Program-made: the position numbers and the translations under genes
NCBI GenBank assembly: GCA_041659945.1
Contig: JBAZXH010000001.1
Span: 627,262 to 691,261, forward strand
DNA length: 64,000 nt
Direction: 5' to 3'
DNA from: Candidatus Pacearchaeota archaeon
GTDB lineage: Archaea > Nanobdellota > Nanobdellia > Pacearchaeales > GW2011-AR1
In this document: in pieces, positions 20,843 through 48,399 of the stretch
How the letters are laid out: each line of letters starts with the position of its first letter
Position numbering within the stretch: position 1 is the first letter of the stretch
The notes under the pieces: model-generated
Databases searched by the model: none
Told to the model about the DNA's origin: nothing
The model's input: only the letters and a program-made list of their open reading frames with translations

Positions 20843-22433
20843 GATATTTTTCTTCGATATACCTTACATTAATTCCTTCATCTGGAGCTCCTCTTACTAG
20901 TCTACGTAGAGGTTTAACTCTATCTTTTTCGATTTCATAATCTGGGGACATTATTATCCATCCTTCTTTTTTAAGCCTAGCATAATCTGTATCTTTATGT
21001 GAGGCTACAAAAACTGTTGCTCTTGACTCTCTTAATTTTCTTAATATCATTTTGCCCATTACATGTCCAATTTCTGCGCCCGTTGAATCTAAAAATTCAT
21101 CTATAAAAATAGCATCTTTTTCTTTTGCTTGTCTAGCTATCTGATTAATTGCTCTAATTTCTGTTTCAAGTTTTCCAACACCTCCAGTATTTTGAGTGTT
21201 TCTATAGTAGTAGATTCTTTGATATGCTGGTAGTGTAACTGAATCTCCAAAAAGATCTACACCTAACTGTCCAAGAATAGAAGCTATGACAAGATTTTCA
21301 ATGAAAAAGCTTTTACTTCCACTATGTAGCCCAGCAATTAAAAATTTTCTTTCTCTTGAAGTTGTTTTAAAATCAATTGGTACATAACCTTCATCTTCAT
21401 CATACATTTGCCAGAAGTGCGTAGACATTAATTTTGGTGGAAAAAGTCTTCGAATATCGTAGTGGTCTCCAAATTTTGGAGTTGTTTGTGGAGGCATTAG
21501 ACAAATACCTCCCATTTCTTCCCTAATTGCTCTTTCAAGTTCTTCAGAACTACATTCATCAAGTCCCATTTCTCGTAGTTCTCTTTGTCCAAAAGCTTCC
21601 CTTGCTAAATTAAGATTATACCTTTGACATGCTTGTACAAATTTATCATAAAGGTCGTTTAATCTTAAAGGAAAAGCTATAGATTCAATGTTGCTTCTGA
21701 TATTTTCTTCTCCAGGTCTTACTCTTAGTTCTCCTTCAACATAATCAAATATTCTTCTTTTAAATCCAATACCTAATTCTTCTGCTATGTTAACGGCTTC
21801 TTCTTTAAGCTTTAATATTCCAGTACGATTAAGTCTATCAAGTACTGCAGAGATTGTTTTACTTTCAAACGAAGAAGTATCCAAAACCATGCCTTCTAAA
21901 GGCATTTTTGAAAGCATTCTCACTTGTCCGCCTGCAGTATCAATTGCAAATACACTTCCGCTTTCAATTGATTTTAATAACTCTAACATTCTTTTTAATT
22001 CTGAATCAAAACTATCTATTTTCGGAAGAATTTTTTGAACTTCTTCTATCCCTCTTAAACCTCCAAGGTCTGTTCTGGCTCTTTGAACTATTTCATAAAC
22101 AGCACTACAAAGATCAAGAAAACCTTCTTTAGATTGGTAGCTAGATGGAGCTCTAAATTGTTTTAAATAGGTGTCAAAAAATCTAGTTCTAAATCCTGGA
22201 GAATCAACTCTTCTGAAAAATTCTTGTCTTTCTCTAATATACCTTGGGTCAAAGCTAACCGCAACTGTTTTTTTTCCACTGCCTTTTTCTTCAATTTGTT
22301 TAAGAAGAGGTTCTCTGCTAAGAAGGTATTCAAGACTTAAAAGTATGGGTGTATCGGTTGTTGGAAATCCAATTAAGTTTACTCCTTCAGGATTGTGGGC
22401 AAAAATTTCTCCTATTGACCTAGTTCTAGTCAT
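20826..22433 (-). CDS. MutS-related ATPase (domain V-like) protein
   Basis: [28 protein letters not shown] is a degenerate Walker A (cf. GPNMGGKST...QIG). [15 protein letters not shown] resembles DE(L/I)GRGTS, and VFVASHKD resembles ATH. Confidence 0.65.
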
Positions 22434-47088: not shown

Positions 47089-47095
47089 TTTGCTT

Positions 47096-47115
47096 AATCC
47101 TAAGGATTAAAGCCC
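47096..47115. repeat. att-like repeat R1 (degenerate)
   Basis: AATCCTAAGGATTAAAGCCC vs R2/R4 AATCCTAA(G/A)GATTAACGCCC. Contains the palindrome AATCCTAAGGATT. Confidence 0.5.
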
Positions 47116-47164
47116 AACAATTTGCTCGCAGTAGATTAATAAATCTCCTTTTCTTAATATTTTA

Positions 47165-47332
47165 ATGGATAAAAAAACATTACATATAATTCAGTTTATA
47201 GTAGGAATTGTTTTAGCGTTAACTAGCGTAGTTTTAATGTTTTTTGGAGTTTTTCCATTACCTGCTAGAATTACAATAGGTATTATTGGCATTGGTTTAA
47301 TTGCAACATCAAAGTTTAGATTGCTAAAATAG
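47165..47332 (+). CDS. candidate 55-aa two-TM membrane peptide
   Basis: Hand translation gives MDKKTLHIIQFIVGIVLALTSVVLMFFGVFPLPARITIGIIGIGLIATSKFRLLK. It lies exactly between R1 and R2. Confidence 0.35.
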   Translation: MDKKTLHIIQFIVGIVLALTSVVLMFFGVFPLPARITIGIIGIGLIATSKFRLLK

Positions 47333-47358
47333 AATCCTAAGGATTAACGCCCCCACGA
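47333..47358. repeat. att-like repeat R2 (copy of the tRNA-Arg 3' end plus its downstream flank)
   Basis: AATCCTAAGGATTAACGCCCCCACGA matches 48311-48336 at 25 of 26 positions. The last 11 nt correspond to the tRNA-Arg discriminator, acceptor 3' strand and start of the T stem. Confidence 0.7.
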
Positions 47359-47464
47359 TACGTATCACACTTTTTATGATACTTTTTGTTACAAATTGTG
47401 TTACACAAAATGTAATAGATTAGGTTACTGGTTTAACGCCCCTACATATTATAATAGAATTGAA

Positions 47465-48217
47465 TTATTGAAGTTCCATTTCATCAAAATTATAAATTAT
47501 CTTTTTGTCTAAATCATAATGCGAAGCATAAAAAGGAAATTCTTTATTTTGAGGTAATATCTTTTTCTTCCATTGGTATATATCTGCCTTCAAAGGAGGT
47601 CCTGGGTAAGCAATCAACCTAAAATTATCTTTTTTAACAAGTGTTTTTGGAAATTCTATTCCTTTTTGTCTAATAATATGCCCTACAGCTATTTCTTCAA
47701 TTATAAAATTAATATTCGCTTCATCCTCTCTTCTATCTTTTAATACTTCAATAAGTAATTTGTGAAATTCTTTATCTTCTTTATCGAGTTTTTTTAATTT
47801 TTCATAGTAAATTGGAAAATCTTGTGAGTTAAGAATGATGTAGTCCCAAGGAACAAAATGTATTGCTTGAGGCATATACTTTCTCTTTTTTATAACAAGG
47901 TTTCTTATTGCATTACTGTGGCTTATCATCTGCCCATTTGTCTTTTTTCTTATTTCTAAAGCAGGGCTATTGTCATTATAATAAAGTCCATTGGTATATA
48001 AAAAAATAGCATCAAGACCAAGCACAGTTATTTTCTTCTCAAAGAATTCAAGCCATTTGTAACACTCTTCAGCATTTTGAGCATTACCAATTCTACTCAT
48101 AGATAATGGAAAAACAACATAACCATCAGTTGGTAATTGGTTAAGATCATGAAGTTCTTTTTTAATTCCCATAGAAGATAAGAGAATATTCTCTTTATAA
48201 ATTTGTCTCGAGTTCAA
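47465..48217 (-). CDS. hypothetical protein with cyclodipeptide-synthase-like motif spacing (tentative)
   Basis: The track ORF starts at TTG. The first ATG (48172) sits ~25 nt downstream of a TTTATAAA box (48194-48201). FPLSMS...NFIIEEIA...LIAYPGPP resembles the Ser / (Y)xxxE / Y-P landmarks of CDPS enzymes, recalled from memory. Confidence 0.5.
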   Translation of the reverse strand: MNSRQIYKENILLSSMGIKKELHDLNQLPTDGYVVFPLSMSRIGNAQNAEECYKWLEFFEKKITVLGLDAIFLYTNGLYYNDNSPALEIRKKTNGQMISHSNAIRNLVIKKRKYMPQAIHFVPWDYIILNSQDFPIYYEKLKKLDKEDKEFHKLLIEVLKDRREDEANINFIIEEIAVGHIIRQKGIEFPKTLVKKDNFRLIAYPGPPLKADIYQWKKKILPQNKEFPFYASHYDLDKKIIYNFDEMELQ

Positions 48218-48310
48218 CTCCCTTCCGAAGCGTTAAACTTTTTGGTAATACTCTCCTCCGCAGCGTTGCACTATTTTCATCAGAAGTTATTCGGTTTATG
48301 TAGATAAGTT

Positions 48311-48336
48311 AATCCTAAAGATTAACGCCCCCACGA
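48311..48336. repeat. att-like repeat R4 at the tRNA-Arg 3' end
   Basis: AATCCTAAAGATTAACGCCCCCACGA overlaps tRNA-Arg nt 48326-48336. Confidence 0.7.
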
Positions 48337-48399
48337 GGATTTGAACCTCGGTTACAGAGTCCGCAACCCTGCGTTCTATCCAGGCTGAACTACGGGGGC
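48326..48399 (-). tRNA. tRNA-Arg (GCG)
   Basis: The reverse complement reads GCCCCCG-TA-GTTC-AGCCTGGAT-AGAAC-G-CAGGG-TTGCGGA-CTCTG-TAAC-CGAGG-TTCAAAT-CCTCG-TGGGGGC-G. Confidence 0.9.

Follow-up and report, generated by a model that had tools for sequence, protein, structure and literature searches.

Why the 3' end of a transfer RNA (tRNA) gene should recur, more or less completely, downstream of the gene itself, and how the short segments of DNA between the copies came to lie there, are the questions raised by a locus in the genome of a Candidatus Pacearchaeota archaeon. The locus is part of a contiguous stretch of 64,000 nt (the window, to the whole of which coordinates refer unless stated otherwise) and lies behind tRNA-Arg(GCG), the sole GCG isoacceptor of the genome and the target of the integration discussed here; the arms of the units described below are read on the strand of this tRNA, which is the minus strand of the window. 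We consider it likely that the repeats are junctions of the attL/attR type (attachment sites, att) resulting from tyrosine-integrase recombination at the tRNA 3' end, and that the segments between them are integrase-less, non-autonomous units of an element family. The anatomy and modularity of the units, their distribution across the archaeal family, the link of the same ends to integrases in relatives, and arms that are more conserved than the cargo are all observed directly.

The repeat is a 26-mer, AATCCTAAAGATTAACGCCCCCACGA, which at 48311-48336 comprises the 15-nt trailer and the last 11 nt of tRNA-Arg(GCG), and which recurs with one mismatch at 47333-47358. This had been noticed in a sequence-only reading of the window that took it for a footprint of site-specific integration, and both sequence and shuffle test agree with the repeat: none of 100 dinucleotide shuffles of the window held two or more matches to the 26-mer, with 0 expected by chance. 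Across the whole assembly (labelled G000; 1.04 Mb in 4 contigs, 87% complete) the 21-mer core is found in three places only, all at the tRNA-Arg locus, and the 17-nt palindrome TTAATCCTAAGGATTAA with its conserved neighbouring motif is likewise confined to this locus, at three palindrome sites. Two weaker copies had been reported as well, and their similarity is real: the copy at 47096-47121 has the 13-nt palindrome whole and shows 73% identity over 26 nt, and the fragment at 47430-47445 agrees at 14 of 16 positions. They are not decayed tRNA ends, however, but parts of the conserved right arms of two units, the former belonging to the type-1 right arm of unit 2, in which AAGCAA replaces the AAGTAA of the family, and the latter being the beginning of the type-2 right arm of unit 1 (Table 1).

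The 11 nt shared with the tRNA (CORE) consist of 3 nt of the T stem, the 7 nt of the acceptor strand and the discriminator, and identity between the repeat copies begins exactly at CORE copy A. The copy at 47333-47358 doubles as attR core for unit 1 and left end for unit 2. Unit 1 keeps both arms and both CORE copies and lacks an integrase, and no recombinase is encoded anywhere in 47090-48336, a domain search of the open reading frames (ORFs) in both intervals confirming what had been read from the sequence.

To place these units in context, we surveyed 401 sampled genomes of the same family, covering 191 genera, for the 26-mer at up to 3 mismatches, and found it in 34 genomes and 28 genera. 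An exact degenerate pattern matches 33 public records, all but one of which bear the label Pace-, Woese-, Nano- or Iainarchaeota. Probably the result of a binning error, the remaining record (L105, JBAZSY010000068.1) is a contig of 2.7 kb in a "Bacteroidales bacterium" bin and has an intron-containing archaeal tRNA-Arg, the att arm of Pacearchaeota and the integrase.

One order recurs at these loci on the tRNA strand, namely CORE (TCGTGGGGGCR in the family), palindrome (TTAATCCTTAGGATTAA), a block of about 100 nt, TATA box, variable cargo, right arm and the next CORE. Within the block, TACATAAACCGAATAACT is nearly invariant and is followed by two core-like motifs of the form GGRGNGTWNAWC; the TATA box, often TAATTTTATAAAC, stands some 22-30 nt ahead of the start codon of the first gene and is kept before unrelated cargo. 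Right arms are of two types, with the consensus (GAGGAAAAA)GTTGGGGAG-TTAATCCTTAGGATT-AAGTAA for type 1 and GTWGGGGCGTTRAACC...TGTAACACAATTTRTAACA...ATCATAAAAAGTGTGATACGTA for type 2, and the type-2 arm of unit 1 recurs beside a CORE with other cargo in two further loci (L117 and L083). The 18 complete units that could be mapped, in 17 loci, measure 269-1855 bp (median about 930 bp); a search with a profile of the family's integrases found neither an integrase nor an integrase fragment in any of them, and their cargo consists mostly of singletons, unrelated among units. The congeners G401 and G252 share a unit with 88% identity whose similarity begins and ends precisely at the two COREs, the DNA on either flank being unrelated. 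"Solo" units of 32 nt (CORE-palindrome-AAGTAA-CORE) occur in L091, L102 and L104.

Conservation is concentrated in the arms. Where both genomes of a pair have an intron-less tRNA-Arg, mean identity is 85% over the 41 nt that follow the CORE, as compared to 74% over the tRNA body, the arm scoring higher in nine of ten pairs. Between L089 and L115 the 52 nt made up of the 11-nt CORE and the 41-nt arm are 100% identical, while the homologous cargo cannot be aligned at the DNA level. Judged by sequence, the arms appear to be functional DNA sites, neither RNA nor terminator.

Integrases are found linked to the same ends in several relatives. On a 269-kb metagenome contig (L156), a type-1 right arm, CORE, palindrome and block are followed by an intact integrase of 437 aa (PF00589 plus SAM-like N-terminal domains), and then by genes for an archaeo-eukaryotic primase (AEP) protein, for a resolvase of the serine type and for a DNA methylase; a mini-unit here abuts an autonomous element. 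In L105 an intron-containing tRNA-Arg, CORE, palindrome, block and integrase follow one another, the integrase gene being frameshifted and the contig of very low coverage. G148 has an intact tRNA-Arg(GCG) with an integrase directly behind it that is 96% identical to the integrase of G097; in the genus of the window, a 435-aa integrase lies directly behind tRNA-Arg in G006, and a divergent integrase-like gene and a restriction-modification system lie behind it in G015. A different mini-unit occupies this position in G019. The integrases of L156, G097 and G006 are mutually 27-47% identical, and homologs of the integrase family usually sit directly behind a tRNA gene, for Ser, Glu, Gly, Asp, Leu or Arg. 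An Arg-type integrase is also present in only two of the 34 genomes with the 26-mer.

The genome of the window has six PF00589 matches, one Xer-like and three of the tRNA-linked integrase family, the nearest to the array being more than 80 kb away. Tyrosine recombinases, which the sequence-only reading had recommended looking for elsewhere in the genome, are thus present at tRNA-Asp, tRNA-Tyr and tRNA-Glu; their identity to the Arg-linked ones of relatives, however, is no more than 21-25%. They mark three more integrated elements with the same integrase family (contig C1, contig coordinates 317268-318713, 353790-355165 and 592959-605742), one with its integrase directly behind tRNA-Asp, one behind tRNA-Tyr with a tRNA-end repeat at 369716, and a third of about 12.8 kb bounded by a tRNA-Glu(TTC) 3'-end repeat, TGCCCCCGCCGGGA. 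A separate observation concerns the Arg-linked integrase elements of G097 and G148, where a second palindrome type, TGTTACCTTAGGTTAACA-TTAGC, stands behind the CORE (L067, that is G097:C28, 3462-3495 and 7608-7641); similar "hairpin 2" sequences behind the distal COREs of L035 and L059 suggest that the 11-nt core is common to several subfamilies of elements.

Genomes of the genus are syntenic on the 5' side of tRNA-Arg (a rubrerythrin-like gene and two further genes), and each has a different 3' flank, a pattern that identifies the tRNA 3' end as an integration hot spot. A strictly empty site, in which tRNA-Arg would be followed directly by the YdeI-like gene, had been proposed as a check; it was sought in the congeners and none was found, because their 3' flanks are not syntenic. 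The solo units are its nearest equivalents.

We propose that crossover takes place within the 11 nt at the tRNA 3' end (TCGTGGGGGCG), which would therefore leave the tRNA intact after insertion. Each unit brings its own arms, a tRNA-proximal one formed by the 17-nt palindrome and the block of about 100 nt, and a distal one of either type, and the TATA box at the end of the proximal arm would drive the first cargo gene. Autonomous members carry a classical integrase (lambda/pNOB8 paradigm) of about 437 aa behind the same CORE-palindrome-block, together with primase, serine resolvase and DNA methylase, and the integrase of such an incoming element could excise mini-units as circles and re-insert them in trans. 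An excised unit would then consist of right arm, one CORE and left arm joined into an attP of about 230-270 bp with several repeated motifs, the circle joint of unit 1 being expected to read ...GTGATACGTA-TCGTGGGGGCG-TTAATCTTTAGGATTAAC...; an attP with repeated motifs and an unsplit integrase gene would fit the lambda/pNOB8 paradigm. By analogy with tycheposon islands and the accretion of cis-mobilizable elements (both considered below), newcomers might use the tRNA or any one of the CORE copies for entry, displacing older units outward, and the solo units could arise by deletion between the two palindromes. In the genome of the window, where a cognate integrase is missing, the units would currently be immobile, stranded unless a helper arrives.

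Several observations speak against integration by a dedicated integrase, and some of these equally suit a second scenario, in which the units are inert scars, full-size integrase elements that were internally deleted down to their arms and one gene and are no longer mobile. No Arg-type, that is cognate, integrase is among the PF00589 matches of the window genome (in an assembly 87% complete), and the locus is the same, at 100% identity, in three other assemblies of this species, which thus provide no occupied/empty polymorphism. The 26-mer, which it had been suggested might be carried by circular or viral contigs, has no match in IMG/VR, and a viral origin was accordingly rejected as a candidate; in metagenomes, attP or tandem junctions of the unit-1 type likewise gave no match, and the type-1 junction gave four contigs, one of them with an intact integrase. 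Some decay is also evident, as unit 2 lacks the block and the distal CORE and the right arm of unit 1 lacks one palindrome arm relative to type 1, and the crossover point is either the 11-nt CORE or the palindrome. The lack of a cognate integrase, the decay, the invariance of the locus among same-species contigs and the scarcity of Arg-type integrases among genomes with the 26-mer all favor scars. On the other hand, scars would not account well for arms that are more conserved than both the tRNA body and the protein-coding cargo, for the lack of integrase fragments in all 18 units, for identical arm types around unrelated single genes, each at the same distance from the TATA box of the arm, or for unit-sized homology between unrelated flanks in congeners. 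We therefore regard the scar scenario as unlikely, though it is the rival that survives best.

A further alternative, raised in the sequence-only reading itself, is that the palindrome is a reused terminator or tRNA 3'-processing hairpin and that the similarity reflects this rather than integration. Its position directly behind the tRNA and its conservation across genera would suit such a role, but a motif present at one locus only in a genome of 1.04 Mb is not a generic terminator, and in the 20 genomes with arrays the palindrome is confined to them, with 1-8 sites per genome that mostly form pairs 0.6-1.8 kb apart. Stand-alone copies include the 11 tRNA nucleotides, the palindrome has no T-run, and it is also found next to DNA other than tRNA and immediately upstream of integrase genes. 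The hairpin explanation is thus largely refuted and, in our judgment, very improbable.

There is similarly little to be said for a structured non-coding RNA gene in the roughly 130 nt behind the tRNA, co-transcribed with tRNA-Arg. The strong conservation of TACATAAACCGAATAACT and its neighbouring bases could be read in this way, but Rfam matched only the tRNA at the locus and nothing in the block, single-sequence folds of either strand were no better than those of shuffled sequences (z of -0.8 and -0.1), and RNAalifold on 19 aligned blocks returned no consensus helix on either strand and no covariation; moreover, a promoter forms the end of the block and integrase genes come after the block, and we give this explanation hardly any credence. 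Hairpin-guided single-strand transposition of the HUH (IS200-IS605-like) kind, with insertion 3' of TTAC, is the most unlikely of all, since the hairpins, which are identical at the two ends, and a TTAC located 2 nt short of the distal one are outweighed by the absence of the Y1 transposase (PF01797) from the window genome, where control genomes gave matches, by the lack of TnpA or TnpB in any unit, by the tyrosine integrases physically linked to the same ends, and by a tRNA 3'-end duplication that is typical of tyrosine integrases.

Turning back to integration by a tyrosine integrase, the family invites comparison with known systems. Integration at tRNA 3' ends, with att cores of 8-13 bp in some cases, tandem integration and gene capture are established in archaea (PMC8371274). 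Classical archaeal elements (type II, pNOB8/lambda paradigm) resemble the family in inserting at the tRNA 3' end, restoring the tRNA and being bounded by direct repeats, and they have an intact integrase gene beside the att site, an arrangement met here only in the relatives L156, L105, G148 and G006. They differ in that the units of the window are without integrase and only 0.27-0.98 kb long, in that the arms here are conserved over at least 28 genera, and in that the hosts are DPANN archaea, which are unmentioned in PMC8371274.

Among bacterial systems, cis-mobilizable elements (CIMEs) retain attL and attR without integration genes and accrete in tandem at tRNA genes in streptococci (PMC5704250; see also Pavlovic 2004 and Bellanger 2011, cited there). 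They share with our units the retention of att sites without integration genes, the tandem arrangement at a tRNA 3' end and the entry of a newcomer at a resident element's att site, but they are decayed integrative and conjugative elements (ICEs) or integrative and mobilizable elements (IMEs) of bacteria that move conjugatively with a helper ICE. Here, genes for conjugation were not seen, units are of single-gene size and the arm includes a promoter. In the tycheposons of Prochlorococcus, resident elements are displaced into the island by those that arrive later, and partial tRNAs and degenerated remnants stay behind (bioRxiv 10.1101/2020.12.28.424599). Common to both are streamlined genomes, specific tRNA targets, integrases that cluster by target tRNA, and autonomous elements combining integration and primase/replication modules with cargo; tycheposons are bacterial, however, and the described ones have their own integrase, in contrast to the form that dominates here, an integrase-less unit some 1 kb long that bears two conserved arms. 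Bacterial CIMEs and tycheposon islands are the closest known analogues.

Integrons offer a third comparison, as they too consist of arrays of small, mostly single-gene and unrelated cassettes on whose conserved sites a tyrosine recombinase acts. Their promoter lies on the platform side, whereas here the promoter travels with each unit, and there is neither an IntI beside the array nor an attI. Integron attC sites are imperfect palindromes (R''-L''/L'-R') and recombine in the form of folded single strands; the sites described here are tRNA-derived, have long, asymmetric, lambda-like arms and a perfect 17-nt palindrome, and show no conserved fold.

A more far-reaching suggestion we put forward as possible but doubtful: DPANN archaea of the Pacearchaeota/Woesearchaeota type might possess an integron-like, differently built, tRNA-anchored cassette system, in which single-gene minicircles (cargo and two lambda-like att arms, one with a promoter) would be piled up and rearranged behind tRNA-Arg(GCG) through a dedicated tyrosine integrase that only rare plasmid-like helpers supply. 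Full-text literature searches combining DPANN or Pacearchaeota with integrase and tRNA returned nothing on such elements, and the widespread cassette family is apparently undescribed. New are the DPANN host clade, the dominance of single-gene units of about 1 kb with complete, strongly conserved and promoter-bearing arms, and the occurrence in at least 28 genera. DPANN archaea have tiny genomes, and no described route of gene exchange among them was found in the literature; a family of 0.3-1.9-kb cassettes with conserved arms would provide a concrete mechanism for the turnover of their accessory genes. Such a system would pair an integrase on rare plasmid-like elements with an essential tRNA in which 11 nt are the defined target, and would yield a compact integrase/att pair amenable to in vitro testing. 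If the units are only scars, the locus would be no more than a routine case of island biology from a clade that has received little study.

The cargo of unit 1 gives an impression of what such units contain. Of the two ORFs that had been reported for the intervals, the 55-aa one is present and the 250-aa gene is likelier to begin at ATG 48172 and to encode 235 aa, given that the TATA box lies 21 nt upstream of this ATG and that most homologs have about 230-245 aa. The homologs, at least 164 (193-280 aa), come from DPANN archaea (Pacearchaeota and Woesearchaeota) and a few bacteria of the Candidate Phyla Radiation (CPR); no Pfam domain was found in the protein or its homologs, and no NCBIfam match for the protein. 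An AlphaFold (AF2) model built from 35 homologs (pLDDT 90.5, pTM 0.88) had cyclodipeptide synthases (CDPS) as all of its top 40 PDB matches in Foldseek (E 1e-6 to 4e-4, TM 0.45-0.58), followed by tyrosyl-tRNA synthetase (TyrRS), and the protein is thus predicted to have a CDPS-like fold, which is Rossmann-like and related to class Ic aminoacyl-tRNA synthetases. Invariant among the homologs are S24, Y59, E159/E160, Y189 and Y219, which might include counterparts of the catalytic Ser/Tyr/Glu set of CDPS. In another tRNA-Arg array (L083), a copy with 62% identity makes up the third of the units, and homologs with 79-86% identity lie elsewhere in their genomes, away from tRNA-Arg. The 235-aa ORF was also considered as a signature or recombinase gene of the element and was rejected, as the cargo adjacent to the block is unrelated among genomes and close homologs are located off tRNA-Arg.

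In other units the identified cargo includes class-I S-adenosylmethionine (SAM) methyltransferases, a nucleotidyltransferase, a helix-turn-helix (HTH) protein, an AAA-DUF4143 ATPase, a 2H phosphoesterase and a C39 peptidase. The first cargo gene encodes a class-I SAM methyltransferase, substrate unassigned, in five of the 11 units run against Pfam (L025, L074, L077, L089 and L095), and the RNA-directed 2H phosphoesterase and nucleotidyltransferase are also among the first cargo genes; cargo may be enriched for the modification of RNA or small molecules.

Table 1. Features of the tRNA-Arg(GCG) locus, in window coordinates.
Feature	Position	Strand	Remarks
tRNA-Arg(GCG), intact	48326-48399	-	Rfam RF00005, 57.8 bits, full length; ARAGORN
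CORE copy A, TCGTGGGGGCG (tRNA strand)	48326-48336	-	Last 11 nt of tRNA; attL-side core
17-nt palindrome TTAATCCTAAAGATTAA (HP), start of left arm	48309-48325	.	1 mismatch to family consensus
Conserved left-arm block	48212-48308	-	TACATAAACCGAATAACT nearly invariant; alignment of 29 loci
TATA box, TTTATAAA	48194-48201	-	21 nt upstream of cargo ATG; conserved distal edge of left arm
Unit 1 cargo gene, 235 aa, predicted cyclodipeptide-synthase-like fold	47465-48172	-	AF2 model and Foldseek
Unit 1 right arm, type 2	47359-47447	-	From GTAGGGGCGTTAAACC to ...ATCATAAAAAGTGTGATACGTA, abutting CORE copy B; about 89 nt
CORE copy B (47348-47358) and palindrome (47333-47347)	47333-47358	-	26/26 to family consensus
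55-aa hydrophobic ORF, only ORF of unit 2	47165-47332	+	Putative gene
Unit 2 right arm, type 1	47090-47121	-	ATTGTTGGGCT-TTAATCCTTAGGATT-AAGCAA on tRNA strand
Unit 1, complete, both arms	47359-48336	-	978 bp, reaching from the base next to CORE copy B through the last base of CORE copy A
Unit 2	47090-47358	-	269 bp; without block and distal CORE

In the left arm of unit 1, the palindrome HP is nearly invariant across the 29 aligned loci, and the block holds two core-like motifs, GGAGAGTATTAC and GGGAGTTGAAC; the motifs of the block are probable candidates for protein-binding sites. The same block contains, at 48217-48282, two imperfect tandem repeats of about 33 nt, ACTCCCTTCCGAAGCGTTAAACT and ACTCTCCTCCGCAGCGTTGCACT, each of which terminates in a motif resembling the junction of CORE and trailer. 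With a similar motif in the right arms there are four same-orientation copies per unit, candidate binding sites for the integrase. At the far end of the array, the stop codon of the YdeI-like gene abuts the right arm of unit 2 where a distal CORE would be expected. Whether the 55-aa ORF of unit 2 is a gene is uncertain, as it has a weak match to DUF6095 below the cut-off and no homolog in any of the loci retrieved for comparison.

Many tRNAs of the window genome carry introns, and the tRNA-Arg(GCG) of relatives often has introns of 37-63 nt or more (L040, L044, L047, L054, L057, L058 and others). ARAGORN misses such tRNAs when run without its intron option, and some 26-mers that seem to stand alone are therefore actually attached to a tRNA. 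Two layouts are more unusual, as in G129:C10 the 26-mers at 21944 (+) and 101803 (-) lie in opposite orientation 80 kb apart, and in L071 the array is about 4 kb from the tRNA-Arg gene; a secondary site or an inversion mediated by att sequences could underlie them.

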